From an uncultured Candidatus Bathyarchaeia archaeon (GTDB lineage: Archaea; Thermoproteota; Bathyarchaeia; RBG-16-48-13; GCA-020345945): a DNA stretch of 64,000 nucleotides. The translations under genes and the position numbers were made by a program. Under the pieces are notes generated by a model. The model had not been told where the DNA came from and did not search any database. It worked only from the letters and a program-made list of their open reading frames with translations. Location of the stretch: positions 11,248-75,247 of the forward strand of contig CAZBVH010000001.1 in the NCBI GenBank assembly GCA_964495315.1, written 5' to 3'. Positions 4,536 to 43,291 of the stretch are shown here, one piece after another. Each line of letters opens with the position of its first letter. The stretch's first letter is position 1.

Positions 4536-5744
4536 TCATCGCGTCTCGTCTTCTTTCAAGTATGCCACAAGGACTAGCTCTGACGCTATGAATAGTCCCA
4601 CGCAAAGCGCAAAAGTGGCTGGCGGTCCATATGCGTCCCAGAGCATTGCGCCGACAACAGAGCCTGGAATAGCTATGAGCGTTATCACGGCGAACATGAC
4701 GCTGAACGTTCCAGCCCTCCTGTTTGCAGGCACTAGATCGGCGATGTACGCGTTTCTCGCTGGAAAGTTGAAGGAGTTTGCTATCGGCTCGATCGTTGCG
4801 GCGATGATCAGCCAGTAGAAGTTGGGTGCCATGAAGTATGCGACTGGGATTAGCGGGTACAGGAATCCGGCAATCAGGATCGAGTTCCTCGTTCCAAGGG
4901 TGTCTGAGAGGCGTGCTACGGGTAACCTTGAGGCTATCATCGCAACGAGCGATATGCCGGTAACTATTCCGTATTCCGTATCAGTAATGCCGACGTTCTC
5001 TATACAGTATACGACGAGGAGGGGACTCAAAGCATCTAATGCAAAGTGAGCTATCGCCCTAGAGACCATTATGGTCCGGATCGGTCCGTTGTGGAATACC
5101 CCGGCCGCGGTCTTCCTGAAGTTTTCGCTGATACGCCTCTTTTCCATGCCTGATTTCTCTGCCGTGGTCAGGGTCTCTTCTAGAAATATTGCCCTTACTG
5201 TGTTGGCGAGTAGGACGCATCCGATCGTGATGGCAATAGCTGTCTTCTCTCCCACTAGGACGCCTTGAGCCTCCATGATCACTCCCGCTACAGCCGGTAT
5301 GATGATCCCTGGGATGCTTGTTGCCGTCTCAAACCCTGCGAACGCCCGGGCGCGGTGTCTTGGATCGACGGATTCGGCTTGGATTGCTTGCAGGGGGTTC
5401 TCTCTGATCGAGTCGATGGAGATGAGCACCGTCCCTAGGAGTAGCTGCTCCCAAGACTTGGCCAAGAAATATACGACTAAGCCCAACGGTGCGATATATC
5501 CAGACAGAATGATCAGCCTCTTTCTCCCTGATATGTCAGAGACCGCCCCTCCAGTGAGGTCCATGATCATCCCTAGGGCTCTCCTAAGCGACAGTACGAG
5601 TCCAACCTCGGTCAACGTGGCTCCCAGCGATATTATGTAGAGCGCCCAGAAGGGCGTCCACATGTAGCCGGCGATGCCGTAGATGAACCCTGAGACGTAG
5701 AGAACAACCATGTTTCTGGTTAGGATACCTCTCTCCGACGTCAC
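4536..5744 (-). CDS. MFS transporter
   Basis: 402 aa hydrophobic protein with the MFS 12-TM architecture, including GRKRLIILSGY-like loop motifs. Confidence 0.75.
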   Translation of the reverse strand: MTSERGILTRNMVVLYVSGFIYGIAGYMWTPFWALYIISLGATLTEVGLVLSLRRALGMIMDLTGGAVSDISGRKRLIILSGYIAPLGLVVYFLAKSWEQLLLGTVLISIDSIRENPLQAIQAESVDPRHRARAFAGFETATSIPGIIIPAVAGVIMEAQGVLVGEKTAIAITIGCVLLANTVRAIFLEETLTTAEKSGMEKRRISENFRKTAAGVFHNGPIRTIMVSRAIAHFALDALSPLLVVYCIENVGITDTEYGIVTGISLVAMIASRLPVARLSDTLGTRNSILIAGFLYPLIPVAYFMAPNFYWLIIAATIEPIANSFNFPARNAYIADLVPANRRAGTFSVMFAVITLIAIPGSVVGAMLWDAYGPPATFALCVGLFIASELVLVAYLKEDETR

Positions 5745-5994
5745 TGTCTCTTACTCCTAGCCTCGCCGCTCGGTCCAAGTGTAATGAAGAGTCCCAATCT
5801 TGCAGACGGCTGGAAAAGTGTTTCGAGGCTTCCTCTCACCTCTCTCCGCAATGCCAGAATCGGCTCAGAGGAGTAAAACTAGGATGGGGTTCCAGATGGA
5901 TTCACGGATCTTATCCTACCGGGTCGCAAACTGATGCTGGGGAAAATGATAATTGGTACGGCGCATCAGCTATTGATGGGGAGAGCGTATAGCA

Positions 5995-7785
5995 ATGAGA
6001 ATTCTGAGAGTAGATCTATCAACTGATTCTCTAAAGGACGAGACAATAGACGAGGAGACTGCGAAGAAGTTTGTCGGCGGCCGTGGCATCGGCGTAAAGA
6101 TTCTCTACGATGAACTCAAGGCAGGAATAGACCCGCTCGGTCCAGAGAACAAGCTGATCTTCATGACGGGACCCGCGACTGGCACGGTGTTCCCTGCGAG
6201 TGGGAGATTTCACGTGATCACCAAGTCTCCCCTCACAGGGGGTATCGGCGACGCGAACTGTGGCGGGAACTGGGGGCCGGAGCTGCGCTTCGCTGGGTTC
6301 GATGGAATAATCTTCGAAGGCAAGGCGAAAGATCCGGTCTACCTATGGATCAGGGATGGCGAGGGCGAGCTGAGAGGTGCTGAAGAATACTGGGGGCTCG
6401 GGGTCTGGGATACCGAGGACAAGATTCAGGAAGAACTTGGCGACAAGAGGGCTAAGCTTGCGAGCATCGGTCCAGCCGGAGAGAAGCTTGTACTCATGGC
6501 AGCCATAATGAACGACAAGCACAGGGCCGCGGGGAGAGCAGGGGTCGGGGCTGTGATGGGGTCGAAGAAGCTGAAGGCCGTGGTTGTTCGGGGTGGGCGG
6601 AAGCCGCCGGTGGCGGATCAAGATGGGCTCTCAAGAGCAGCTGAGAAAGCGGTTCAGAAGCTTAAGGAGAACGCTGTGACTGGGGAGGGGCTGCCAAAAG
6701 TGGGCACCGCGATCCTGATCAACGTGAACAACGAGAGTGGGGCACTCCCCACGAGAAACTTCCAGACAGGAGTGTTCCCAGGGGCTGACAAGATCAGCGG
6801 CGAGACCATACAGAAGACGATACTGACTGGCACCAAGCCCTGCTGGGGTTGCTCAATCGCTTGCGGTAGGGTGAGCACGATCACTGAACCTCCATACCAG
6901 GTCGAAGGGGAGGGCCCAGAATACGAGACAGATTGGTCCCTCGGTGCCATGTGTGGGGTCGACGACCTCAACGCCATAACCAAAGCCCACAACATCTGCG
7001 ATGAGATGGGGATGGACCCAATATCCTTCGGGAGCACGGTTGGATGTGCGATGGAGCTGTGTGAGAAGGGGTTGGTTCCCAAAGAGAAGCTTGGCGGAAT
7101 GGAGCTGAAATTCGGCAACCCACAGGCGATCGTTGAGCTGGCTTGGAGAACTGGCATTCGATCAGGGTTCGGAGACGAGATAGCCCAAGGAGCGAAGCGT
7201 CTAGCTGAATCCTATGGCGCCCCTGAGCTCGCTATGCACGTCAAGGGACTGGAGCTTCCCGCCTACGATCCTAGAGGCGTCAAGGGCCACGGGCTAGGCT
7301 ATGCAACTTCAAACCGGGGTGGATGCCACTTGAGGGCCTACATGATTGCCCCTGAGATCCTTGGCATACCTGAGAAGCTTGATCCCCTAAAACCAGATGG
7401 GAAGGCTAAGTGGGTCATCGCGTTTCAAGACATCTTCAGCATGGCTGACTCGTTGGTCGTCTGTAAGTTCCTGACGTTTGCCCTCGGTGCAGAGGACTTA
7501 ACCAGCTTGAGCAACCCAATAACGGGCTGGAACTGGTCCGCAGACGATTTCACGAAGATCGGTGAGCGAATCTACAACCTTGAACGGATGTTCATCAACC
7601 GTGAGGGCTTCTCTAGGAAGGACGACACTCTTCCTGAGAGGCTGCTCAAAGAGCCTATGCCTGAGGGACCCGCCAAAGGGCATGTCGTTGAACTGGATCA
7701 GATGCTTGACGAGTACTATGGACTCCGTGGCTGGAAGGACGGTAGGCCGACAGCAGAGAAGATCAAAGAACTTGGGCTCCGGTAA
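5995..7785 (+). CDS. aor: Tungsten-containing aldehyde:ferredoxin oxidoreductase (AOR family)
   Basis: 596 aa with the MRILRVDLST...GGRGIG...TGPATG N-terminal AOR signature and full-length colinearity with AOR. Confidence 0.9.
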   Translation: MRILRVDLSTDSLKDETIDEETAKKFVGGRGIGVKILYDELKAGIDPLGPENKLIFMTGPATGTVFPASGRFHVITKSPLTGGIGDANCGGNWGPELRFAGFDGIIFEGKAKDPVYLWIRDGEGELRGAEEYWGLGVWDTEDKIQEELGDKRAKLASIGPAGEKLVLMAAIMNDKHRAAGRAGVGAVMGSKKLKAVVVRGGRKPPVADQDGLSRAAEKAVQKLKENAVTGEGLPKVGTAILINVNNESGALPTRNFQTGVFPGADKISGETIQKTILTGTKPCWGCSIACGRVSTITEPPYQVEGEGPEYETDWSLGAMCGVDDLNAITKAHNICDEMGMDPISFGSTVGCAMELCEKGLVPKEKLGGMELKFGNPQAIVELAWRTGIRSGFGDEIAQGAKRLAESYGAPELAMHVKGLELPAYDPRGVKGHGLGYATSNRGGCHLRAYMIAPEILGIPEKLDPLKPDGKAKWVIAFQDIFSMADSLVVCKFLTFALGAEDLTSLSNPITGWNWSADDFTKIGERIYNLERMFINREGFSRKDDTLPERLLKEPMPEGPAKGHVVELDQMLDEYYGLRGWKDGRPTAEKIKELGLR

Positions 7786-7832: not shown

Positions 7833-8120
7833 TTGCCGAAGGTTGAGGTCCGAGTATACGCGACCTTCAGGGAACTCTTTCCATCAAACACTCTAAAGAT
7901 CTCGACCGAAGCACGAGACGTCAGAGAGCTAATAGACTTCTTGACGGGGGAGTACAGTTCAGGCTTCAGAGAAAGGCTGCTCGACAAGGAGACGGGGAGA
8001 CTCCGCCCTTACAACAAGATACTTGTCAATGGGAGAGACATAGATTTCCTAGATTATCTCAAGACAGAGCTGAGAGACGGTGACTCGGTCGTCTTCTTTC
8101 CGCCAGCTGGAGGAGGATAG
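7833..8120 (+). CDS. MoaD/ThiS-like ubiquitin-fold sulfur carrier with C-terminal GG
   Basis: 95 aa starting at TTG, beta-grasp pattern, ending ...FFPPAGGG followed by a stop. Lies immediately downstream of aor. Confidence 0.75.
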   Translation: MPKVEVRVYATFRELFPSNTLKISTEARDVRELIDFLTGEYSSGFRERLLDKETGRLRPYNKILVNGRDIDFLDYLKTELRDGDSVVFFPPAGGG

Positions 8121-8169
8121 AAGCAAGATCAGGTGGTGGGCAGAAACAGACCCGTGAGTTGATCTCGAA

Positions 8170-9402
8170 TTGGAAGACAAGGAAGACCCGATTACGGATC
8201 ATATCCTAACGGCGCGAGAAGGGGAGGTGATCTCACTTCCAAAGAGCATAATGAAGAAGCATGGGATCGCGTTAGGAGAGAAGCTCGAAGTCTATGAGAT
8301 TGGAGGAGACCTCCTACTCAAGAGGACGCATCAAGACGATATAAGACGGCTCTACGTGGAGCCCACAACCGAGTGCAATCTGGGCTGTAGGATCTGCGTA
8401 CGCAAATCCTGGGAAGACCCTATCGGGAGGATGAGCTTAGAGGATTACAGGCGACTGATGAAGATGGCATCAGCCCTTCCAAACCTGGACAGGGTGATCC
8501 TCGGCGGCTTCGGGGAACCTTTGTGTCACCCCGAGATATGCGAGATGATCCGTGTAACCAGGAAGACCCTCGGCGAAGATGTGGGTATCGAACTTACTAC
8601 TAACGCCTCTATCCTAGACGAAGAGACTTCTAGGAGGCTGGTCTCAAGCGGACTGGACAGGTTGATAGTCTCCCTTGATAGCGTCTCTTCCGCCCTATAC
8701 GAAGAGATAAGGAGCGGCGCTGACTTCTCCAGGGTCACAGCGAACATTCTTACCCTTGGCAAGGTGAAAGACAGCCTAGGCGTATCAACTCCCTCCCTCG
8801 CCATAGAGTTCGTTTCCATGAGAAGAAACATTAGAGACCTACCTGAGCTACCGCGCCTTGCCAGCCAGATGGGTGCCTCAGCTATCCTCGTAACCAATCT
8901 CCTTCCGCACACAACCGAGATGCGAGACGAAATCCTATACTCAGACTCGTCGCAGAACGACCTCCTAAATGATCTAAGGCTCCACTCGGTGAGAGAGGCG
9001 ATAAAACACTCCGTAATGCTGACCATGCCTGAAACCGCGTTGGGGACTCAAAGAGAGTGCCGTTTCATCGAGGACGATTCCTGCGTCGTCTCCTGGGACG
9101 GATATGTCAGCCCCTGCTACAGGCTGATGCACACATATCCCTGCTATGTCCTCGGGAGGATCAAGAGGGTGGTGAAGGCTCAGTTCGGGAACGTCACGAA
9201 GGAAAGCCTTAGTGAGATATGGAACTCGGGGGAGTATGTGAGGTTCAGGCACAGAGTGAAGATGTTCAGGTTCCCCTCTTGTCCTGACTGCAAGTTTAGG
9301 GACTATTGTTGGTGGACTGAGACCTCGGAGCATGACTGCTGGGGTGCAAGCCCTTCGTGCGCAGACTGCCTCTGGAGCCGAGGTATCCTTCTCTGCCCTT
9401 AG
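8170..9402 (+). CDS. Radical SAM/SPASM-domain protein (Cmo-like tungsten cofactor-modifying protein) with an N-terminal SpoVT/AbrB-like domain
   Basis: CNLGCRIC CX3CX2C motif plus a Cys-rich C-terminal SPASM/twitch region (CPDCKFRDYCWW...CADC). N-terminal residues 15-55 resemble an AbrB swapped hairpin. The aor-cmo synteny is known from Pyrococcus. Confidence 0.85.
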   Translation: MEDKEDPITDHILTAREGEVISLPKSIMKKHGIALGEKLEVYEIGGDLLLKRTHQDDIRRLYVEPTTECNLGCRICVRKSWEDPIGRMSLEDYRRLMKMASALPNLDRVILGGFGEPLCHPEICEMIRVTRKTLGEDVGIELTTNASILDEETSRRLVSSGLDRLIVSLDSVSSALYEEIRSGADFSRVTANILTLGKVKDSLGVSTPSLAIEFVSMRRNIRDLPELPRLASQMGASAILVTNLLPHTTEMRDEILYSDSSQNDLLNDLRLHSVREAIKHSVMLTMPETALGTQRECRFIEDDSCVVSWDGYVSPCYRLMHTYPCYVLGRIKRVVKAQFGNVTKESLSEIWNSGEYVRFRHRVKMFRFPSCPDCKFRDYCWWTETSEHDCWGASPSCADCLWSRGILLCP

Positions 9403-9567: not shown

Positions 9568-10974
9568 CTAGTGCTTGGCTTGCTTTGTCGTCGTCTCGGC
9601 GGCAAGTATCACGGGCTCCCAAGGGGTACAGACGCTCGGGGCGTAGCAGGTGTCTGCCTTGGATAGCTCCCAGACGTTCATCTGTTTCTGTATCGCTATC
9701 GAGACTATATTGATTCTCTGGGTTACCTCCTCTCCGCCAACTATCTGTCCCCCGATTACACGGCCGGTGTCAGGTTCTGCGACGATCTTTACAACTATGT
9801 CCTTTCCCCCTGGATAGTACTCTGCTCTTGTCTTAGAGGCGATAGATCCAGAGATAGTTTCGAGTCCTTCCTGATGGGCGTGAGACTCGGTAAGCCCAGT
9901 TCCCCCTACCTCGAAGCCGAACATCGTCGAGACCACTGAGTCTAGAACTCCTGGGAATACGGAGTGACCGCCAACAGCGTTGGCTCCGGCAACTTTTCCC
10001 TGCCTGGCTGCTGTTGTCCCTAGAGCACTTATGGTCGGTCGACCTGTGACCATGTTTGAACTCTCCACGCAATCGCCGGCAGCATAGACGTGAGGAATTG
10101 AGGTTTCCATCCTCGGGTTGACTTCTATCGCGCCTGTTACTCCAAGTCTCATTCCGATCTCACTTGGAAGCTCAACCCTCGGCACCACGCCGGCTGCAAA
10201 CAGCACTATCTCTGCATCGATCTCCCCTCTCCTCACAACGACTCCACTGACCTCTCCGTCGCCGAGTATCTTCTCCACAGATCTCCCGACCATCACCCTG
10301 AGTCCATGCTCCTCGATCTTCTCCTGTGCGATCTCCGCCATGTCCTCGTCAATCATTCTCGGAAGTATCTGTGGGGAACTTTCGGTGACGGTGGTTTCGA
10401 TATCCCTCCTTACGAGGGCGTGGGCGAGTTCTAGGCCTATGAATCCTGCTCCCACAACTATCGCGGAAGAAGCGTTCTTCATGGCGTCTTGTATCTTCAT
10501 TCCATCCTCGAGGGTTCTGAGGGAAAAGACGCCCTTCTTCTCGATGCCTGGTATTGGAGGGATTCGGGAAGCGGCTCCCGTGGCCAGGATAAGAGAGTCG
10601 TAGTCCAGCGACTCCGTTTCGCCTTCGAGATGTTCGACCTCGATGGTTTTCTCCTTTGGATTGACATGTTTCACCTTGCTTCGTAGGCGTAGATCGATTC
10701 TCATGTCTTCGAAGAATGGAGGGGGAAAGAGCAGGAGCTCCTCAAAGCTTGGGACCTCCCCGCTTAGCACATACGGTAATCCACAACGAGAGTATGGCGG
10801 ATAGGCTTCATCAGATATCAAGGTGATCTCAATGCGTCTGTCCCTCTTCCTGGCTTCCGCGGCTGCGGTGACTCCGGCGGAATTTGCTCCAACGATCACG
10901 ATGCTCTTCTTGCGTGTACGCTTATCCCTACCAACCATACTTCCTCCTCCCAGTCTTTGTCTGAGTGGTTTCAC
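9568..10974 (-). CDS. CoA-disulfide reductase / NAD(P)H sulfur oxidoreductase (pyridine nucleotide-disulfide oxidoreductase)
   Basis: GxGxxG FAD site (IVIVGANSAG), redox-active SRCGLPY cysteine and a second NAD fold. Start may be the internal MVGRD (10938). Confidence 0.8.
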   Translation of the reverse strand: MKPLRQRLGGGSMVGRDKRTRKKSIVIVGANSAGVTAAAEARKRDRRIEITLISDEAYPPYSRCGLPYVLSGEVPSFEELLLFPPPFFEDMRIDLRLRSKVKHVNPKEKTIEVEHLEGETESLDYDSLILATGAASRIPPIPGIEKKGVFSLRTLEDGMKIQDAMKNASSAIVVGAGFIGLELAHALVRRDIETTVTESSPQILPRMIDEDMAEIAQEKIEEHGLRVMVGRSVEKILGDGEVSGVVVRRGEIDAEIVLFAAGVVPRVELPSEIGMRLGVTGAIEVNPRMETSIPHVYAAGDCVESSNMVTGRPTISALGTTAARQGKVAGANAVGGHSVFPGVLDSVVSTMFGFEVGGTGLTESHAHQEGLETISGSIASKTRAEYYPGGKDIVVKIVAEPDTGRVIGGQIVGGEEVTQRINIVSIAIQKQMNVWELSKADTCYAPSVCTPWEPVILAAETTTKQAKH

Positions 10975-11015
10975 CTATACATTTGTATGCGCAGAGATAC
11001 GGGCTAAGTAGCGTG

Positions 11016-11384
11016 CTAGAATGTTATGACTGCGTCAGCCTCCAATAGTAGGTCGTTTAGGGTGGCAGCCCCGACGATCGTTACTGGTTTCTGGATGTTC
11101 CCCTTCTCTATTCCTAGGAGCATGCAGCTCTGGTCGCAGACCATCATGCGTACCCCTGCTCCGACGGCTTGGTCCATGACCTGCTTTAGGGTCGGGAAGC
11201 TTCCGACCTTAATGTTCTCTGCCTCTCCACTCTTCACAACGGTTACTCCCTTGATGACGAAGTATATCGTGGCGTCGATTCCCATCGCCTGTGCTGTCGC
11301 GGCAAGGATGAAGGGGGCGTAGAGCCTCTCCGGGGTATCCGTTCCACTTGTCTGCACATATAGGATCCTCTTTCTCTCTGGCAC
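11016..11384 (-). CDS. DsrE/DsrF-family sulfur-relay protein
   Basis: 122 aa with DsrE-like fold motifs and a conserved Cys in MMVCDQSC. Confidence 0.75.
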   Translation of the reverse strand: MPERKRILYVQTSGTDTPERLYAPFILAATAQAMGIDATIYFVIKGVTVVKSGEAENIKVGSFPTLKQVMDQAVGAGVRMMVCDQSCMLLGIEKGNIQKPVTIVGAATLNDLLLEADAVITF

Positions 11385-11388
11385 TCTC

Positions 11389-11640
11389 TCACCTCCGGCA
11401 GCTGGTCTTCCTTATGAGGAATCTCAGGCCAACCTCCTCTTTCCTGAAGTCTAGGATCTCCTGTCCCATCCTCCTGGCCCAACGCTTGATATCCTCGTCT
11501 GCAGCCGGGTCATCGGCAAGCACCTCCAACACCTCCCCGCTCCTCAGCTTCCCCACCTCGGCGGCGGTCCTGAGTATGGGTTCGGGGCAGCATAGCCCTC
11601 TCAAATCGATCTTCCTCTTAGGGTTGGTTGGCATGTCCAT
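11389..11640 (-). CDS. TusA-like sulfurtransferase
   Basis: 83 aa with the CPxP motif (DLRGLCCPEP). Start is 4 nt upstream of the dsrE-like gene, consistent with an operon. Confidence 0.8.
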   Translation of the reverse strand: MDMPTNPKRKIDLRGLCCPEPILRTAAEVGKLRSGEVLEVLADDPAADEDIKRWARRMGQEILDFRKEEVGLRFLIRKTSCRR

Positions 11641-11692
11641 GATGCACCTCTCTGCACGCTGTGTGCTGCAGTTATGTCAGATACAGATATAT

Positions 11693-11711
11693 CTTTATGA
11701 CGCTGTCATAA
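11693..11711. promoter_or_regulatory. 19 bp palindrome TTTATGAC-gct-GTCATAAA in the divergent tusA-operon / E1 intergenic region
   Basis: Perfect 8 bp inverted arms with a 3 bp spacer, read directly from the sequence. Lies 56 nt from the tusA-like start and about 60 nt from the E1 start. Confidence 0.4.
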
Positions 11712-11769
11712 AAAGAATGCGCTGTATGCCGAAGTAAAAACCAATAAAGTCTCTGAAATGTGAGAAACC

Positions 11770-12861
11770 GTGGGGAATAGATTGGACAAGACAGGGCTAT
11801 CGGAGGAAGATCTCTACACGTATTCAAGACAGATAGTGTTGAGAGAGATCGGTTACGAGGGGCAAGAACGCATACGAGATGCCAAGGTCTGTGTTGTCGG
11901 TCTGGGCGGCCTAGGGTGTCCTGCTGTCTTGCAGCTTGCCGCTATGGGGGTAGGCTATCTGAGGATTGTCGATCGGGATCTTGTAGAACGTTCGAACCTC
12001 CATAGACAGTACCTCTACGATACGAGTCAGCTCGGGCTTCCGAAGGTTGAGGCGGCGATGCTCAAATTGGAGAAACTTAACCCCGATGTCAAGCTGGATC
12101 CTCATCCTCTCTCTGTAGACGGCTCAAACGCAGGAAGGGTCGTTGAGGGAATGGATGTCGTGCTCGATGGGTTAGATAACCTGAAACCCCGGTATGCGGT
12201 CAATCGGGCGTGCGTTGAACATAATATTCCCTACGTGTTTGCAGCCGCCATAGAGACCTTCGGATCTGTGTCAACAATCATCCCTGGAGAGACCTCGTGC
12301 CTGGAGTGCTTCTACTCCGACATCGATGAGGATCTCCTACCCACCTGTTCCGTTGTTGGGGTTCACCCCTCTACTACCTCAATCGTATCGAGCCTAGAGG
12401 TATCTGAGGCGGTTAGAGTTCTTGTCGATACCAAACCCAAACTTGCAGGAAGCCTCCTCTTCTTCGACCTGTCAAATATCGAGTTCGATCGGATCGGTCT
12501 CAAAAGAAGGGAAGACTGTCCTGCATGTGGCGAGAGCCCTGCACAGATTCACAGATTCCGTGAGAGCATTCAGATCGAGGAGGTCTGCAGTCGGGGAGGA
12601 AGAAGGACCTTTATCGCGGTGCCCTGTGAGGACCTGGACCTGGACCTCCGTGTGATTCAGAGAAGGTTAGAGAGGACGATGGGAATGCTGTCCAAGCGGA
12701 CTAAGATGAGTCTAGCTTTCATGTTCAAGCACCGGACACGGACAACGCTCCTTCAGTCCGGAGTATGCATCCTTGAGGGGCGCGTGGACGGAGATGCTGC
12801 TCTGGCGAGTTACCGTCGAATCATGGAAGGTCTTCAGTTGACTGGGTCCCGTCAATCATAG
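11770..12861 (+). CDS. MoeB/ThiF/UbaA-family E1-like activating enzyme with C-terminal extension
   Basis: Rossmann GLGGLGCP nucleotide site and two zinc CxxC pairs (CLEC and CPAC), followed by about 100 aa of unassigned C-terminal sequence. Confidence 0.85.
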   Translation: MGNRLDKTGLSEEDLYTYSRQIVLREIGYEGQERIRDAKVCVVGLGGLGCPAVLQLAAMGVGYLRIVDRDLVERSNLHRQYLYDTSQLGLPKVEAAMLKLEKLNPDVKLDPHPLSVDGSNAGRVVEGMDVVLDGLDNLKPRYAVNRACVEHNIPYVFAAAIETFGSVSTIIPGETSCLECFYSDIDEDLLPTCSVVGVHPSTTSIVSSLEVSEAVRVLVDTKPKLAGSLLFFDLSNIEFDRIGLKRREDCPACGESPAQIHRFRESIQIEEVCSRGGRRTFIAVPCEDLDLDLRVIQRRLERTMGMLSKRTKMSLAFMFKHRTRTTLLQSGVCILEGRVDGDAALASYRRIMEGLQLTGSRQS

Positions 12862-13543: not shown

Positions 13544-14254
13544 TCACCGGGGGCGGGAGCTTTCTCCTTCGATTCTTCCGTCCCTCATGCGGACAATCCT
13601 GTCCGCGAAATCGGCTGCGATAGGATCGTGGGTGACCATGATCACGGTGACCCCTTCCTCCTTGCAGAGGTCCTTCAGTTGGCCTATGACCTCCTGCCCG
13701 GTCTTTGTGTCTAGGTCTCCCGTAGGCTCGTCTGCAAGGATCAGGCTCGGACGATTGGCTAAAGCTCTTGCTATCGCAACCCTCTGCTGTTCTCCCCCGC
13801 TGAGTTCATCAGGTCTATGATCTGCCCGGTCTGAGAGCCCGACCGTCTTGAGTAGCTGGTCTGTTCTCTCCCTGCTCTTCTTCCTGTCCACATTGGCCAG
13901 GTCCATGGGAAGTTCTATGTTCTCTCTGGCTGAGAGGACAGGGATGAGGTTGTAGAACTGGTAGACGAACCCGATCTTATGTCTCCTTATCCTATCCTTG
14001 TCCGACTCTCTCAGCTTCGAGAGGTCCTCTCGGTCAAGGATTATGCTGCCTTCTGTAGGCGTATCCAGGGTTCCTATGAGGTTGAGTAGCGTGGTCTTTC
14101 CGGATCCGGATGATCCCATAACCGCGACGAACTCCCCCTTTTTCACTCTTAGGTCGATTCCGTTTAGGGCTTTAACCTTCAGTTTTCCGAGTGTGTAGAC
14201 CTTGGTTAGGCGGTTCACTTCTAGGATCGATGTCTCGGTCTCGTTTCTTGTCAT
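13544..14254 (-). CDS. ABC transporter ATP-binding protein (MacB/LolD-type)
   Basis: Walker A (GSSGSGKTT), signature LSGGEQQR, Walker B ILADEPTGDLD and H-loop. Confidence 0.9.
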   Translation of the reverse strand: MTRNETETSILEVNRLTKVYTLGKLKVKALNGIDLRVKKGEFVAVMGSSGSGKTTLLNLIGTLDTPTEGSIILDREDLSKLRESDKDRIRRHKIGFVYQFYNLIPVLSARENIELPMDLANVDRKKSRERTDQLLKTVGLSDRADHRPDELSGGEQQRVAIARALANRPSLILADEPTGDLDTKTGQEVIGQLKDLCKEEGVTVIMVTHDPIAADFADRIVRMRDGRIEGESSRPR

Positions 14255-14258
14255 CTGT

Positions 14259-16913
14259 TCACTCGTTCCTCCTTATGGCGTCGACTATGTCTAGTCTCAG
14301 CGCTTTGTACAGGGGATATGCCACGCTGACGACTGATACCCCGAGCGCGAGTATAGTTGCGGTCCTCATTGCTTCCCAGGGTGTTTTGAGTGCCCCGGAG
14401 AAGCCTGTCTGGGCCATCACGAAGGTGATTCCTCTGTAAATGATTAGTCCGGAGATCGTTCCCAGCAGTAGCCCTATTGCTCCAAGTATGATTGCTTCTC
14501 CGACTATCATCTTGTTCACCTGGTTTATGCTCATGCCTTGAGATCGCAGTATACCGATCTCTCTCTTCCGCTCCGATATGTTCATGATCATTATACTTGA
14601 CATGCCGATTGCGGATACCACGACTGAGAAGAGGATCAGGTTGTTGAATAGGTTCCACATCTCATTCATGTTCTTGTCTATTGCCTCGAGGATGTCGATT
14701 CTCGTGATTACTCCGATCCCGTATTTCTTCCCGAATTTCTCGAGAATTCTATCTCTCACGTATCCAATTCTCTCGCTATATTCGGGTTTGACCTTTACGT
14801 AGAACAGTGTTGCCTCGTCCTCGTAGTAACCCCATTGCGCGTTCAGGGTGTGGTATGAGATGTAGCACATCTTGCTCATTGGTCCTCCTGATGGCTGCTG
14901 CATTCCTACTTCGACTATTCCGATGACGTGGAAGATCCTCCATACTGGTTTCCAGATGACGATGTTTGGTGCGATCTCGACTGCTAGCAAAGAGAGGACG
15001 TTGATCTTCGATCCCACTCTCGCCCCCAAAGTTTGGGCAACGCCGCTTTGGAGGATGATTGTGTTTGGGTCATGGAGTCTCTGGTAGACATCGGGCGGGG
15101 TTTCTGGTGTGAAGGTCATATTCATTACTTTGGGGTAGGCACAGTACCTGTCTGAGTAGGCTCCGTTTGGGGTGTGGATCGCGCTCAGGCTGATCGTGAC
15201 ATTCTCGCTTCTTGTCACTGATCGTATCTTTGTGCCGATTATCCGAACTGGGGCAGCCTGCTCAATAAGGGTCCTGTTCTCAAGGCGGGCGAGGTCTTTC
15301 CAGAATTCTCTTTGAAGTGCGTCGTCTCCCGCTATCACCATTATGTCGGATTGGAAGAGGTTGGTGACCGTCTTTTCTATCCCGTTGTTTACGGTATATT
15401 GTACTCCGCCTATCGCGACTATGAAAGACAGGCTTATTGTTATCAGTGTGAAGCAGATGGTTGTCCTTACTAGGTTTCTTGAGAAGTTTCTCGATGCGAG
15501 TCTGCTGATTTTTCCGAATACAGGGTAGAGCGCGTACTCGAAGATCTTCTCTGTGGCTTTTATGAGTCCCGCCGTCATCAGGATGAGACCTGCTATCAAA
15601 GGAGGAATCGAGGCTGCGCCGATTCTCGGGATATCTATGACCTTGGATGCATTGGCGAATCCTTGGAGGTAGACTCCTATGAGGAATAGTGGGGCTCCTG
15701 CTCCAAAAAGTACCCATTGAAGCCTTCTGTGGCCGGTCATTCTCATCGAGGGTCTGAGTGCCTTTAGGATTTCTGTTCTTCCTGCAATAATGGACGGGAT
15801 GAGTCCACCGATCAATGTGGTTAGTAGCCCTGTTGCGACACCGAGGGCTATTGTCTCTGGCTTATAGATAATCGTGATTCCTTGGGACGCGTGGAAGCCT
15901 AGCGTCTTCGAGAAGTATCCTGCTAACAGAAATCCTGTCACTAGCCCTGTGGCTGTTCCCGCTATGCCGAGGAGTATGCTCTCAAACAGGAACATTCGAA
16001 AGACTTGTGTCTTTGAGGCCCCTATGGATCTGATCACCCCTATCTCATAGATCCTCTCCTTCACGTTCATGTAGACTGTATTGAAGACGATGACGAGGGC
16101 GACAACGCTTGTTACAGCCGACATTATGAGCAGTCCACTCCTGAAGCCCTGCATGGCATTCTGCATGCTGTCAAGGATCCTTTCCTTATCGGCGGTTACT
16201 TCATACTCCCCTCCAAGGGCTCTCCTGAGTCTCTCAACTACTTCACGGGTATCCGAAACGCTGTCAACCCGAGCTATTATTCTTGTGAACTTCCCCCAGG
16301 CTCTGGACATCTGCCGGGCCGTTGCAAGGGTTACGTACGCTGTGTATCTCTGGATGAAGAACATTCCTCGGCTCTCAACTGGAAGATGGTATAGACCTAC
16401 CACTTCCAGCCAGTAGTAACTTGACCCCACTCGGACCTTGATTCTCTGTCCAATCGTGTAGTTGAGTCGGTCATCTATGATGATCTTTCCAGGGTCCAGC
16501 GATCTGCTTCCAGTTATGTTTGTGTATTCCGGGTTCAAGTAGTCGAAGTCGCTTGTCGGGTTCACTCCGTTGATTGAGAGTGAGGCTGAGCTTTCCTCCG
16601 TCATGTTCCAGAATATGGCGTGCCCTGAGGCTGTGACTCTGCCTGATGCCTCCGCTACGCCTTTCACCTGCCGGACTTCTGACAGGACCTGCTCACTTAG
16701 TGATGCGCCGGTAGCTGAGTAGACGCTGATGTCTATGGATCCAGATGACCTATTGATGGTGTCAACGAATTGGTTGTAGGCGCTGTCGAAGGCTATGTTG
16801 ACCCCTGTTAGGAGCGCGACGCCGATTATGATGCTCAGGACGGTGAGCGTGTTCCTGAGCTTGCGTCTGGAGAGGCTTCTGAACGCGATTCTTGTGGTGG
16901 ACATATGTGCCAT
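14259..16913 (-). CDS. ABC transporter permease, duplicated FtsX/MacB-like with large extracytoplasmic domains
   Basis: 884 aa. N-terminal TM helix, large extracytoplasmic domain and FtsX 4-TM block, then a second repeat of the same arrangement. Confidence 0.85.
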   Translation of the reverse strand: MAHMSTTRIAFRSLSRRKLRNTLTVLSIIIGVALLTGVNIAFDSAYNQFVDTINRSSGSIDISVYSATGASLSEQVLSEVRQVKGVAEASGRVTASGHAIFWNMTEESSASLSINGVNPTSDFDYLNPEYTNITGSRSLDPGKIIIDDRLNYTIGQRIKVRVGSSYYWLEVVGLYHLPVESRGMFFIQRYTAYVTLATARQMSRAWGKFTRIIARVDSVSDTREVVERLRRALGGEYEVTADKERILDSMQNAMQGFRSGLLIMSAVTSVVALVIVFNTVYMNVKERIYEIGVIRSIGASKTQVFRMFLFESILLGIAGTATGLVTGFLLAGYFSKTLGFHASQGITIIYKPETIALGVATGLLTTLIGGLIPSIIAGRTEILKALRPSMRMTGHRRLQWVLFGAGAPLFLIGVYLQGFANASKVIDIPRIGAASIPPLIAGLILMTAGLIKATEKIFEYALYPVFGKISRLASRNFSRNLVRTTICFTLITISLSFIVAIGGVQYTVNNGIEKTVTNLFQSDIMVIAGDDALQREFWKDLARLENRTLIEQAAPVRIIGTKIRSVTRSENVTISLSAIHTPNGAYSDRYCAYPKVMNMTFTPETPPDVYQRLHDPNTIILQSGVAQTLGARVGSKINVLSLLAVEIAPNIVIWKPVWRIFHVIGIVEVGMQQPSGGPMSKMCYISYHTLNAQWGYYEDEATLFYVKVKPEYSERIGYVRDRILEKFGKKYGIGVITRIDILEAIDKNMNEMWNLFNNLILFSVVVSAIGMSSIMIMNISERKREIGILRSQGMSINQVNKMIVGEAIILGAIGLLLGTISGLIIYRGITFVMAQTGFSGALKTPWEAMRTATILALGVSVVSVAYPLYKALRLDIVDAIRRNE

Positions 16914-16950: not shown

Positions 16951-17208
16951 TTAAGATTTCTTGCCAGGGGATCTTTCGTCTTCTCCGCCAAGGGCTCCCA
17001 TGAGCTTGATGGCGAATTCACGGACGTGGTCGGCTCTCGTGATGACGATGGATTTATGTGGGCCGCCGCCTAGGACGAGCAGTTTCTCCCCTGGTCCGAT
17101 CCCCATCTCTTCTCTTGCCTCTTTGGGTATCACTATCTGCCCCCTCTCACTTATGGTTACGATTCCGTAGATGCGTATCCTTTTCCACAGCTCAGCCATT
17201 CGGATCAC
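16951..17208 (-). CDS. SpoVT/AbrB-family DNA-binding protein (putative regulator of the downstream ABC operon)
   Basis: 85 aa with the swapped-hairpin motif ISERGQIVIPKEAREEMGIGPGEKLLV. GTG start; 37 nt upstream of the permease gene. Confidence 0.7.
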   Translation of the reverse strand: MIRMAELWKRIRIYGIVTISERGQIVIPKEAREEMGIGPGEKLLVLGGGPHKSIVITRADHVREFAIKLMGALGGEDERSPGKKS

Positions 17209-17453: not shown

Positions 17454-18626
17454 ATGGCTACGACGCGCGACAGGTTGATGGCTGTTCTTGAGGGCAAGGA
17501 GCATCAGAGCGTAGTGTGGTGGCCCAGGATAAGGCACTGGTACGATGTGAACAACTGTGCGAATACGCTTCCCGAGCGATATAGGGGGCTCTACTTAGAT
17601 GAGGTCTACAAAGATCTTGGCGCAACCCCGCGCGAGGTCTGGATAGGGGGTCTATTCGGTGGAGGCGAATACTCTGGAGAGATCGCCTTGGTGACCAGAG
17701 AAGGAAATGATGTGGAGGTATGGGTGAAGCCTGCTAAGGGTCTCTACAAGGACACCTCTGGTGACTTCATCGTCACAAAGTACGTGACCCCGGTGGGCGA
17801 GATGACGCAGGTCGCTAGGAGGACGGAGAGTGGCACTTCCTCTTATACTGTCGAGCACTTCCTCAAGGACCAGGAGAGCATAGACGTCTACAAGTACGTC
17901 TTGGAGCACAGGGAGTATGAGTTCGACTGGCCGCGCTATAGATGGGGTGAGAAGAGGTACGGCGACCAGATCTACCCCAAAGCTGCGACAGAAAGGGAGC
18001 CTCTCCTAAGGCTAGTGATAGGGATGATGGGGCTCAATAGAACGGTGATCTGGCTCTGGAAGCACCAACAGGAGATGGAGGAGCTCATGGAGCTGATGCT
18101 GCAAGACCTTGAGAAACAGATTGAAGCCTATGCTGGTACGCCTGTCGTAGAGTTGTGCATGCCATCAAACACTCACGAATCCCTATGCTCACCAAACCAG
18201 TTCAGGAAGTATATGATACCTCACCTCCAGCGGATCGCAGAGAAGGTTCATGCGGCTGGGAAGTACATCTCATCCCACTGGGACGGCTTTGTGAAGAATC
18301 TACTTCCGCTCCTCAAGGATACGGGGATAGATGGTGTGGAATGTGTAACGCCGAAACCTCAAGGCGACCTTACACTTGAGGAGATGAAGAGATACATAAC
18401 TGATGAGGGCAGGTTTCTCAGGGATGGGCTGCCTGCCGTCCTATTCACGAAGCATCACTCTGTAGGGGAGCTTGAGGCGTTCACACGGCAGATCCTGGAT
18501 ACGCTTGGCGGTTCTGGGCGGCTGCAGCTCGGCGTCTCCGACATGGTTCCCGCGAATGCCGATATTGAGCGGGTTAGGCTCGTAGGCAAGATTGTCGAAG
18601 AATGGAACGAAGAGAGATTCGGGTGA
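17454..18626 (+). CDS. Uroporphyrinogen-decarboxylase (URO-D) family methyltransferase (MtaA/MtbA-like methylcobamide:acceptor methyltransferase)
   Basis: 390 aa URO-D-fold pattern. Lies 3 nt upstream of a corrinoid protein gene. Confidence 0.7.
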   Translation: MATTRDRLMAVLEGKEHQSVVWWPRIRHWYDVNNCANTLPERYRGLYLDEVYKDLGATPREVWIGGLFGGGEYSGEIALVTREGNDVEVWVKPAKGLYKDTSGDFIVTKYVTPVGEMTQVARRTESGTSSYTVEHFLKDQESIDVYKYVLEHREYEFDWPRYRWGEKRYGDQIYPKAATEREPLLRLVIGMMGLNRTVIWLWKHQQEMEELMELMLQDLEKQIEAYAGTPVVELCMPSNTHESLCSPNQFRKYMIPHLQRIAEKVHAAGKYISSHWDGFVKNLLPLLKDTGIDGVECVTPKPQGDLTLEEMKRYITDEGRFLRDGLPAVLFTKHHSVGELEAFTRQILDTLGGSGRLQLGVSDMVPANADIERVRLVGKIVEEWNEERFG

Positions 18627-18629
18627 TCT

Positions 18630-19283
18630 GTGTTGACCGAGAAAGGGAAGAAAATCCTTGAGAAGATAAGGAACAGTGTCGTGAACTTCGACGTGGAAGG
18701 CATAAGGAGCGCGAGTTTAGAGGCGATAGGGACAGGGATGACCACGGGAAGGGTCATAGAAGCGATGGGGGAGGGGATGGGTGTTGTTGGCAAGAAGTAT
18801 GAGGCGGGAGAGTACTTCGTCCCAGAGCTCATCATGGCAGGCGAGACGATGAAGGAAGGTCTGGCGGTTCTGAAGCCACACATGGAGGACGAGCCGCAGG
18901 CTACCTTAGGTACCGCTGTCGTTGCAACCGTTCTCGGCGACCTCCACGATATCGGGAAGAACATATTCATCACCCTGCTGGTCGCAGCCGGATTCAATGT
19001 CGTCGACTTGGGGGTCGATGTGCCCGCAGGGAAGATTGCGGATGCCGTCAGGAGTTCTGGTGCAATTATCGTCGGTCTCTCCGCCCTCCTAACCACTAAC
19101 CTAGATCAGATACCCCTCATCATCAACGAATTGGAGAAGGTGGGGCTGAGAGAGAAGGTGAAGGTTATCGTGGGAGGAGCCACCGTGACTGAGGCCTTTA
19201 CGAAGGAGATAGGGGCTGATGGCTATGCTAAGGAAGCCGTGACCGGTGTGGATATCTGTAAGAAGTGGGCGAAGCAAAGCTAA
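18630..19283 (+). CDS. Cobalamin-binding corrinoid protein (MtaC/MtbC/MtmC-like)
   Basis: DxHxxG B12-binding motif (DLHDIGKN) in a Rossmann-like B12-binding domain, preceded by an N-terminal helical cap. Confidence 0.85.
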   Translation: MLTEKGKKILEKIRNSVVNFDVEGIRSASLEAIGTGMTTGRVIEAMGEGMGVVGKKYEAGEYFVPELIMAGETMKEGLAVLKPHMEDEPQATLGTAVVATVLGDLHDIGKNIFITLLVAAGFNVVDLGVDVPAGKIADAVRSSGAIIVGLSALLTTNLDQIPLIINELEKVGLREKVKVIVGGATVTEAFTKEIGADGYAKEAVTGVDICKKWAKQS

Positions 19284-40939: not shown

Positions 40940-43291
40940 ATGCCAGTTGTGGGCAAACGTGTACCAATGACGAAAACACATGATGCGTTTGAGAAAGTGA
41001 CGGGCAGGGCAACGTACACAACAGACCTTAAGTTACCCGGCATGTCGTATGCAAAGATCCTCAGAAGCCCTTATGCCCACGCGATAGTTGCAAGGGTTGA
41101 TGCGAGAAGAGCGGAGGGAGTCTCTGGCGTTGTGGCAGTGCTAACTTCAAAGGACGTATCTTCCGAACCGCACGGCACCTTTCCTCTGCCACACCCACAG
41201 GACTTGTATACACTACCCCCTATCGGCGGCAAGGTACGCTACGTGGGGGATCCGGTGGCTGCGGTGGCAGCCAAAGACATCGACACAGCTGAGGAAGCCC
41301 TAGAACTGATAGATGTGGAATACAAGGAGCTGCCCTCGGTCCTCGACCCTGAGGAGGCCCTCAAGCCTGATGCACCAAGGATACATCCGTGGGGCAACCT
41401 CGCAGTAGACCCCATGAACATAGAATTCGGCGACATTGAGAAAGGCTTCAAGGAAGCCGACTACGTATTTGAAGACACCTACAGAACATCGATTCAATGC
41501 CATGCCTGTGCTGAAACACATTCGTGCGTGGCAGACTGGGACGAGGATGGAAAGATAACGGTTTGGGCAGGCACTCAGGCTCCCTTTGCCACTCGAGAGT
41601 GCCTAGCCTTAGCTCTTGGCATCTCGGAAGATAGGATCAGGGTTGTGGTTCCGCCCGGCGGTTTCGGAGGGGGTTTCGGAAGCAAGAAGGAAGTCCAATC
41701 CTTGAGCCTGGACATTGCCGCTCTCTTGGCCAAGAAAGCGGGTAGACCAGTGAAACTGGTGTTCACTAGGGAAGAAGAGTTTGCTTGCACTGAAACACGC
41801 CACCCTACCGTTGTTCGCCTAAAAACTGGGGTAAAGAAAGATGGGACCCTGACAGTGAGGCACTCAAAGACGATCTACGATACTGGTGCATACGCCAGTC
41901 ACGGATCATTTGTCTTTACGCGTGCGATGCGCTCCCTTGCACTCTGGAGATGCGCCAACATAAAGTACGAGGGGCTTCTCGTCTACACCAACAAGGTTGT
42001 TGCTGGGGCAATGCGAGGATATGGAAACCCACAGCATACGTTTGCGGTTGAGCTTCAGAACGATCAGATCGCTGAAGAGCTGGGGATCGACCCGATGGAG
42101 TGGAGACTGAAGAATCACATACGAGTCGGTGACATAGATAAGGCACCAGGGCGCGGGGATCCTGGCAAACCCATAGGTGGTAGTAACTGGATACCGGCGT
42201 TGTATAAGATCCAGAGTTGTGGTCTCAGTGAATGCATAGTGAAGGGTGCGGAGAGCATCGGTTGGGAGAGAAGGAAGATGAAGCCTGGAGAGGTCGGGGA
42301 AACAAGGAAACGAGGTATAGGTATGGCTTGCGGTATGCATAGCAGCGGAACGATGCCTACTCCCCGATTCTCCAGCGTCTATATCAGGCTGAACGAGGAT
42401 GGCAGGATAGACATAATTTCAGGCGGGTGCGACCACGGAGGAACAGGACAGCATACCGTAATAGCGCAGATCGCCGCCGAAGAACTGGGGGTGCCCTTGG
42501 AAACGATAACTGTAACAGCCGAGGATACGGGCGTCACTCCATATGATTCAGGGACGGCTGGCGCCAGTGGTGGCACCTACACCGTAGGAGGGGCACTTGT
42601 AGAGGCGATAACGGATCTGAAGAAGAAGCTTCTCAGACAAGCTTCGACCATGTTGAAGGCACATGTCGAAGATCTGGAGATAGAGAAAGGGTACGTCCAT
42701 GTTAAAGGAGCCCCCGATAAGCAATTGTCCTTTAAAGACATAGCCGGGAAGGCTCGAGTAGACAGACATCCTTACACCTATCTGGAGGGTGATGGGTACT
42801 ACTATTATCCAGCCACAAATGCGCCTCCCTTCTTCGTGGACTTCGCGGAAGTGGAGGTGGACACCGAAACCGGGCAGGTCAAGGTGCTCAAGATAGTGGC
42901 GGCTCACGACAGCGGTAGGGCCATCAACCCAATGTTCTTTGAGGGACAGGTTCAAGGAGGGATACAGCAGGGCGTAGGATATGCCCTCACCGAGCGGCTC
43001 ATAGTAGATGAGGTGACTGGGATGCCGCTCAACCCCACATTCTTGGACTATAACGTGCTGAGGGCGGTCGACATGCCTGAGACCGAAGTGATAATTGTGG
43101 AGACGGAGGAGCCTACAGGCCCTCTTGGAGCGAAAGGGCTTGGTGAACCGTGCTCGGTCTCTGTTGCCCCAGCAGTAGTGAATGCCGTGTGCGACGCAAT
43201 AGGAGTACGCATCAAAGAGCTTCCAATAACGCCGGAGAAGGTCCTTCAAGCGTTAACAGAAAAAGAGCAACAAGAGCGAATTGCCCACTAG
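40940..43291 (+). CDS. Xanthine dehydrogenase/aldehyde oxidase-family molybdopterin-binding large subunit (CoxL-like)
   Basis: 783 aa with colinear a/b-hammerhead and MoCo-binding domains. Starts 2 nt after the small-subunit stop. Confidence 0.9.
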   Translation: MPVVGKRVPMTKTHDAFEKVTGRATYTTDLKLPGMSYAKILRSPYAHAIVARVDARRAEGVSGVVAVLTSKDVSSEPHGTFPLPHPQDLYTLPPIGGKVRYVGDPVAAVAAKDIDTAEEALELIDVEYKELPSVLDPEEALKPDAPRIHPWGNLAVDPMNIEFGDIEKGFKEADYVFEDTYRTSIQCHACAETHSCVADWDEDGKITVWAGTQAPFATRECLALALGISEDRIRVVVPPGGFGGGFGSKKEVQSLSLDIAALLAKKAGRPVKLVFTREEEFACTETRHPTVVRLKTGVKKDGTLTVRHSKTIYDTGAYASHGSFVFTRAMRSLALWRCANIKYEGLLVYTNKVVAGAMRGYGNPQHTFAVELQNDQIAEELGIDPMEWRLKNHIRVGDIDKAPGRGDPGKPIGGSNWIPALYKIQSCGLSECIVKGAESIGWERRKMKPGEVGETRKRGIGMACGMHSSGTMPTPRFSSVYIRLNEDGRIDIISGGCDHGGTGQHTVIAQIAAEELGVPLETITVTAEDTGVTPYDSGTAGASGGTYTVGGALVEAITDLKKKLLRQASTMLKAHVEDLEIEKGYVHVKGAPDKQLSFKDIAGKARVDRHPYTYLEGDGYYYYPATNAPPFFVDFAEVEVDTETGQVKVLKIVAAHDSGRAINPMFFEGQVQGGIQQGVGYALTERLIVDEVTGMPLNPTFLDYNVLRAVDMPETEVIIVETEEPTGPLGAKGLGEPCSVSVAPAVVNAVCDAIGVRIKELPITPEKVLQALTEKEQQERIAH

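Follow-up and report, generated by a model that had tools for sequence, protein, structure and literature searches.

The window analysed here, a 64,000-nt stretch from a Candidatus Bathyarchaeia archaeon whose positions serve as coordinates throughout, carries a three-gene cluster in which the genes for a tungsten-type aldehyde:ferredoxin oxidoreductase (AOR) and a MoaD-like sulfur carrier lie immediately upstream of a gene for a radical SAM/SPASM protein, called rSAM below (Table 1). The same arrangement is present in locus L001 of a close relative and in many genome loci, and AOR adjoins rSAM in about half of the loci fetched. The rSAM protein matches TIGR04317, the NCBIfam model for the tungsten cofactor oxidoreductase radical SAM maturase 'Cmo', with 402.1 bits (E=1.9e-120) against a curated cutoff of 380 bits, and its residues 57-410 cover model positions 2-349, end to end. 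Both PF04055 and PF13186 score above threshold, the Cys columns are invariant across 29 homologues, and the alignment of homologues places conserved C-terminal Cys residues at positions 297, 316, 371, 374, 380, 390, 397, 400, and 409. From these similarities we conclude that rSAM is a Cmo-type radical SAM/SPASM maturase whose gene belongs to an AOR-MoaD-rSAM cluster. Because the TIGR04317 alignment starts at residue 57, the first ~56 residues are an extension that lies outside the family model.

A first-pass annotation, made from the letters of this DNA, had placed an AbrB-like domain in this extension, ahead of the CX3CX2C core. Our analyses agree with that placement: the segment TAREGEVISLPKSIMKKHGIALGEKLEVYEIGGDLLLKR, rSAM residues 14-52, precedes C69-x3-C73-x2-C76. 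The N-terminal domain (N-domain) matches PF04014 with E-values of 5.2e-5 to 6.6e-5 and 23.2-23.5 bits versus a gathering score of 24.7. When residues 1-67 were scanned alone, PF04014 was the sole Pfam match (E=6.6e-5, 23.2 bits), with no competing family, and TIGR01439 (AbrB domain) matched the same residues at 6e-4, with 19.5 bits versus a cutoff of 28.3. Among the N-domain segments of close homologues, 12 of 59 matched PF04014 (best 3.6e-7), 7 matched MraZ, and 3 matched AbrB-like; in a set of diverse representatives (<50% mutual identity) PF04014 was found in 12 of 40 (best 1.4e-6), the only other family match being AbrB-like. A profile of 58 N-domains aligned by hhalign to the stand-alone AbrB protein that is also encoded in the window (P=2.9e-5). 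Compared with PDB sequences, the profile gave weak E-values (0.03-1) but aligned over its full length to AbrB and SpoVT. Pfam and NCBIfam scans of the N-terminus gave no PqqD/RRE family match, and its structural neighbours are of the AbrB type only.

Structure prediction, which had been proposed as a check for a swapped-hairpin-type fold, gave a SpoVT/AbrB-type half-barrel. The AlphaFold2 (AF2) model of residues 1-56, built from the same N-domain alignment, has a mean predicted local distance difference test score (pLDDT) of 82, rising to 86-92 over residues 11-50. It comprises a b1-b2 region at residues 12-24 (extended, with the conserved LP motif), a helix at 25-31, and a hairpin at 39-44/47-52. 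In a Foldseek search against the PDB, 24 of the 25 best matches were SpoVT, AbrB-N, MazE, VapB, Sso7c4, C68/C56, or a related histone-like protein. The best match had a template modelling score (TM, normalized as TMq) of 0.67 and a root-mean-square deviation (rmsd) of 1.7 Å over 46 columns (prob 1.00), and the matches to SpoVT, AbrB, and MazE spanned TMq 0.55-0.67, rmsd 1.7-2.6 Å, and prob 0.97-1.00. The single-chain conformation given by AF2 is that of SpoVT (rmsd 1.7 Å). Residues 12-23 are modelled with confidence yet without strand pairing, as expected if a partner chain is needed. A full-length AF2 model (pLDDT 82, pTM 0.85) reproduced the secondary structure of the N-domain. Taken together, four independent lines (the family matches of the window protein, those of its homologues, hhalign, and the AF2 model with its Foldseek matches) show that the first ~52 residues contain one predicted SpoVT/AbrB-type half-barrel made of a hairpin, a helix, and a hairpin. 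Around it, the alignment indicates that leader residues 1-11 are missing in bacterial homologues, which begin MPKV..., and that a 'PDxRKxY' segment at the junction of linker and core is conserved family-wide. The solved structures nearest the rSAM core are BlsE, SuiB, CteB, SkfB, anSME, PqqE, and MoaA; there was no solved TIGR04317 family member among the structural matches to the core.

Table 1. Genes and protein segments of the rSAM locus and its surroundings (positions in the window)
Feature	Positions	Strand	Details
Tungsten-type AOR, first gene of the cluster	5995..7785	+	596 aa; AFOR_N/AFOR_C on the 91%-identical L001 protein
MoaD/SAMP-like ubiquitin-like sulfur carrier	7833..8120	+	95 aa; ends ...PPAGGG; TIGR01687 2.3e-18, above cutoff
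Whole rSAM gene	8170..9402	+	410 aa; radical SAM/SPASM, TIGR04317; TTG start
Acidic N-terminal leader LEDKEDPITDH, residues 1-11	8170..8202	+	pLDDT 48-56, poorly conserved
Predicted SpoVT/AbrB-type half-barrel, residues 12-52	8203..8325	+	PF04014, hhalign, AF2, Foldseek
Linker THQDDIRRL, residues 53-61, into first core strand YVEPT	8326..8352	+	
Radical SAM core, Pfam residues 63-198	8356..8763	+	PF04055 E=9e-17
CX3CX2C motif, C69/C73/C76	8374..8397	+	Cys invariant in alignment
SPASM/auxiliary-cluster region (Pfam residues 297-375) and Cys-rich tail	9058..9399	+	PF13186
CoA-disulfide-reductase-like	9568..10974	-	
DsrE2-like	11016..11384	-	
TusA-like	11389..11640	-	
MoeB/ThiF/UbaA-type E1 enzyme	11770..12861	+	
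ORF after the permease gene	13544..14254	-	236 aa; counterpart of the L001 ABC ATPase gene
MacB/FtsX-type ABC permease	14259..16913	-	884 aa; adjoins the AbrB gene
Stand-alone AbrB-type protein	16951..17208	-	85 aa; PF04014 6.6e-8, TIGR01439 2e-12

The TTG at 8170 is the first start codon past an in-frame TGA at 8155-8157. It is very improbable that the N-domain is an annotation artefact, that is, that translation begins at the ATG at 8251 (M28) and yields no more than a truncated part of the domain that would not function. Gene callers did pick M28 in the two closest relatives (P0002 and P0003, 75% identity), and a clear Shine-Dalgarno sequence was not seen ahead of the TTG. Against this, the DNA of L001, which like L002 encodes a 75%-identical relative with the same TTG-start 410-aa open reading frame (ORF), has codons 1-27 open and in frame, with conservative replacements and with the TTG, R-E-G-E, and L-P kept; on this conservation we rejected the M28 start. 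Furthermore, a 100% identical protein from the Joint Genome Institute (JGI), P0001, was called from the TTG, bacterial homologues encode the entire domain from an ATG ('MPKVxxDxxGRLxLP...'), and the GGAGG-like string that sits 20 nt from the ATG at 8251 codes the conserved R-E-G-E. The N-domain is 54% identical between the window and L001, versus 77% for the core. The proposal that the domain is genuinely fused to the N-terminus of a Cmo-like radical SAM/SPASM enzyme stands.

The fusion also occurs well beyond this window. Among the best 120 homologues, ~100 proteins have a length of 392-399 aa and contain the domain. One-genome-per-species data contained 444 relatives of the rSAM gene, the best of them ~45% identical. 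In these data the alignment begins at residue ~12-23 for relatives in Chloroflexota, Desulfobacterota, Sporomusa, and Geosporobacter and only at residue 57 for many from Bacillota, which have a shorter, seemingly helix-less version (KVRIAKDGSTKLPVSLEGGQEAIFISTEGGYRLIPL) upstream of it. We also searched 1.84 billion representatives clustered at 50% identity and examined the best 134 with an intact Cys motif. A full domain was recognisable in 30 of these, with degenerate versions in a few more; 27 have 30-44 residues ahead of the Cys motif that resemble the last hairpin alone, and 62 have essentially nothing N-terminal.

A domain common to all Cmo orthologues would have had to include the 'cofactor modifying protein' (Cmo) of P. 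furiosus, and it does not: that protein (357 aa, TIGR04317 475 bits) begins MKYLYLEITSRC at the core and lacks the domain. Whether Thermococcales Cmo share the N-terminal domain is thus answered in the negative; the Thermococcus sp. ortholog has only a 22-residue leader. Staphylothermus and Fervidicoccus proteins also have only a short leader, and proteins from Thermoplasmata, Heliorestis, and Culexmicrobium are without the domain. The N-termini form a graded series: full, helix-less (Bacillota), single hairpin (Thermococcus, Crenarchaeota, Caldisericaceae), and none; what Thermococcus and Crenarchaeota have looks like the single-hairpin form. We considered whether an AbrB partner encoded in trans might replace the missing domain, and discarded this when none was found adjacent to rSAM in the three domain-less loci inspected (Thermococcus, Thermoplasmata, and Heliorestis). 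Judged by sequence, the AbrB-type fusion is widespread, being neither universal nor confined to the window, and the N-domain is an optional accessory module found in about a quarter of the diverse representatives and in a sister clade.

Members of the sister clade, proteins of ~420-430 aa, share the three-part AbrB-rSAM-SPASM architecture and have a textbook N-domain, 'VDESGRLVLPxxVAEKYGLKPG' (VDESGRLVLPPAVAEKYGLKPGTRVRIE); for several of them PF04014 is already in the precomputed annotations. Unlike the window protein, they score 265-325 bits with TIGR04317, under the 380 cutoff, and they are related to TIGR04311, 'putative metalloenzyme maturase'. Their genes lie in islands with ArsR, ACR3-type (SBF), DsbD_2, rhodanese, GcvH, OsmC, thioredoxin, and DGC genes and with no AOR or MoaD; the rhodanese and the GcvH-like small carrier-type protein adjoin rSAM, and one island has two rSAM paralogues side by side. 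A low-molecular-weight phosphatase gene is also part of the gene set of these islands (L089:4387-9175 and one JGI contig). A more distant relative, P0247 (L087:1384-2814), carries an XRE-type helix-turn-helix (HTH) domain (PF01381, E=6.7e-12) N-terminal to its rSAM/SPASM core, directly downstream of a gene read from sequence as a MoeA-like fusion with a periplasmic-binding-protein-like domain. This HTH fusion was seen on just two contigs, both from sister samples, and the closest relatives of P0247 have neither the HTH nor any other N-domain; we therefore dropped the idea that DNA-binding fusions are a recurrent theme, P0247 being a singleton.

Compared with known systems, the window protein resembles P. 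furiosus Cmo and T. kodakarensis TK1064 in its end-to-end TIGR04317 core, CX3CX2C motif, and SPASM-type Cys-rich C-terminus, but it adds a full AbrB-type domain and an 11-residue acidic leader, neither of which is present in P. furiosus Cmo. With the SpoVT/AbrB domains of AbrB, SpoVT, MazE, VapB, and MraZ it shares the hairpin-helix-hairpin topology, a similar length, and the 'G-x-[LIV]-x-[LI]-P' and 'G' loop motifs, SpoVT and AbrB being the best structural matches. As in SpoVT, where an AbrB domain is joined to a GAF domain, the AbrB-type part is N-terminal to a larger globular domain; the difference is that its fusion partner in the window protein is an enzyme and not an oligomerisation, sensor, or toxin-binding segment. 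The RiPP recognition elements (RREs) of SuiB, CteB, and SkfB are likewise small N-terminal accessory domains that precede a radical SAM/SPASM core. The analogy is limited to position: an RRE combines a winged helix-turn-helix and a three-stranded sheet, and the window protein has a swapped-hairpin half-barrel of unrelated fold. We know of no peptide substrate for an enzyme of the window type, unlike the RRE-bearing SPASM enzymes.

In the solved SpoVT/AbrB proteins known to us, one half-barrel forms a full barrel only together with another copy. With one half-barrel per chain and no partner gene nearby, a two-chain N-terminal barrel is the simplest reading: by analogy, the N-domains of two maturase chains would pair to give a homodimer joined through an eight-stranded barrel, which may also offer a protein client a place to dock. 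The N-domain of the window protein probably does not bind DNA. Since many orthologues are without it, the N-domain is dispensable for the core chemistry. The most likely role that we infer, although we see the chances as evenly balanced, is therefore that of a dispensable module that would hold two maturase chains together and maybe dock partners. Several points weigh against this view of the domain and its role. The PF04014 and TIGR01439 scores of the window protein fall just short of the curated cut-offs. The persistence of the C-terminal hairpin in many shortened orthologues suggests that part of the domain may pack against the core of the enzyme instead of contributing to a barrel. DNA-contact residues were mapped by comparison with AbrB and SpoVT sequences, and for DNA contact other proteins of the superfamily rely on different residues. 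Finally, charge argues only weakly against DNA binding, as swapped-hairpin proteins such as MazE are acidic and yet are DNA binders.

The N-domain could instead serve in client recognition, RRE-like in function, by docking the MoaD-like carrier or apo-AOR and presenting it to the active site, a reading that we consider rather unlikely. In SuiB, CteB, and SkfB, which rank with the solved structures nearest to the core, an N-terminal RRE holds the same position; in the sister clade a GcvH-like carrier-type protein and a rhodanese are adjacent. However, we know of no case in which an AbrB-type domain binds a ubiquitin-like protein, and the sister clade has the domain in the absence of MoaD and AOR. 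The domain is also lacking in P. furiosus Cmo, examined at the protein level, and the three domain-less loci mentioned above offer no AbrB in trans. MoaD-like genes, often as two paralogues, adjoin rSAM in 43 of 81 loci and do so as well in T. kodakarensis, where tk1066-tk1065-tk1064 encode AOR, UblC (MoaD), and rSAM in the same gene order, where UblC contributes to AOR and FOR activity, and where rSAM is described merely as 'possibly involved' in cofactor maturation (PMC11323500). The same operon (PMC11323500) counts on the other side too, for it and the Heliorestis locus have domain-less orthologues in an AOR-MoaD-rSAM or AOR-rSAM-ThiS context.

We think it unlikely that the enzyme is a PutA-like autoregulator, whose barrel would bind the operon promoter so that the enzyme keeps the cluster repressed as long as no substrate or partner titrates it away. 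All of the top Foldseek matches are DNA-binding proteins, just as, to our knowledge, the characterised SpoVT, AbrB, MazE, VapB, and MraZ domains bind DNA; basic positions are conserved in the family at alignment columns 12, 30, 31, 45, and 55; and P0247 has its HTH at the same N-terminal position, beside a MoeA-like gene. An ~80-nt block upstream of AOR is, moreover, conserved between the window and L001. However, that block is explained equally well by a promoter plus a 5' untranslated region, no inverted repeat was found in 5700..6000, the AOR/operon promoter region, and the HTH fusion stands alone, the nearest relatives of P0247 being without an N-domain. The arginines of AbrB that contact DNA (R8, R15, R23, and R24) appear not to be conserved in the window protein: V20 (Thr in L001) stands at the equivalent of R15 and Met at that of R23. 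In the column equivalent to R15, 50% of the family have K/R; L/M stands at the equivalent of R23, and K29 at that of R24. The net charge of the window domain, 0 to -4, argues in the same direction (residues 12-56, ~0 by hand count; residues 1-56, -4; family mean, -0.3). Quite improbable, in our view, is that the N-domain is a structural remnant or cap, its core-side hairpin packing on the radical SAM barrel and the rest decaying or lineage-specific, with no separate function. The graded series from full through helix-less and single-hairpin forms to none would fit such a history, and so would the faster evolution of the N-domain relative to the core. Yet the full domain and its motif are kept in Chloroflexota, Desulfobacterota, several archaea, and the sister clade (PF04014 1e-6 to 4e-7), and this retention argues for selection on the whole fold.

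Both the enzyme family and the domain superfamily are known, and Pfam already flags the architecture in some relatives; what is new is a SPASM maturase whose accessory domain is of the AbrB type and not of the RRE type. A literature search gave no paper that links AbrB/SpoVT to Cmo, describes the architecture, or gives it a role, and no published biochemical function for any TIGR04317 member, Cmo biochemistry being essentially absent there. Cmo has been known beside tungsten aldehyde oxidoreductase genes since 1995, and the domain provides an experimental handle, for which the orthologues with the full domain, the hairpin only, or nothing are natural controls. The finding is a lead rather than a surprise and is not unique to this genome; it would be a case in which an enzyme, instead of a transcription factor or antitoxin, carries the swapped-hairpin fold. 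A doubtful but conceivable extension is that the N-domain is an unrecognised partner-recognition or regulatory element of this branch of SPASM maturases, acting either as a carrier-docking dimeric platform or as a PutA-like self-repressor. Were it a docking platform, it might serve the MoaD-like carriers in tungsten clusters and the GcvH-like or rhodanese carriers in the sister islands, and a carrier protein would then be the real substrate or co-substrate of Cmo.

The MoaD-like ORF of the window ends directly after its GGG, unlike the L001 copy (L001:5573-5944), which reads 26 residues past the GGG (GGGDRKDSGNRPNQ..., 123 aa) and overlaps the TTG start of rSAM; this read-on could reflect a carrier that needs C-terminal processing or a lost stop codon. 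Bacterial clusters usually have two MoaD-like genes. In loci from Clostridia (Bacillota; L009, L019, L025, L053, L059, and L062) the order is AOR - MoaD(110-125 aa) - rSAM - MoaD(77 aa), and in those from Chloroflexota (L022, L043, L057, and L077) it is AOR - rSAM - MoaD(79 aa) - MoaD-like(~125 aa). The conserved block mentioned above, 5915..5994, lies directly 5' of the AOR start and is near-identical to L001:3660-3740 (GCTGGGGAAAATGATAATTGG...GGGGAGAGCGTA), and the intergenic remainder upstream of AOR is not alignable between the two. The block could act as a regulatory site, or it could comprise a promoter and a leader. Neither an Rfam family nor a tRNA was detected in the window, and the ~80-nt block itself has no Rfam match.

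The stand-alone AbrB protein noted at first pass exists, although its gene lies on the minus strand, and the link to rSAM suggested by its presence did not hold up. Its conserved neighbour is an ABC transporter: the pairing of AbrB and ABC permease genes is kept in L001, and tblastn (E<=1e-5) found no homologue of the stand-alone AbrB near rSAM in 79 genome loci. Given this pairing and the lack of homologues at rSAM loci, we rejected the protein as an rSAM partner; its most plausible assignment is to the transporter. The same protein has a sub-threshold match to the model of the HgcAB-associated protein HgcC (NF040962, 3.9e-11).

Downstream of the AOR-MoaD-rSAM cluster comes a sulfur-relay set (9568..12861) that L001 does not have, a TrmO-like gene being found there instead. 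Farther along, 17454..19283 (+) holds ORFs of 390 aa and 217 aa that are apparently the URO-D/MtaA-like and B12-binding genes of L001 (a methyltransferase system), and 40940..43291 (+) encodes an XdhA-like molybdenum hydroxylase large subunit, which scores 651 bits with NF043082, below the cutoff.

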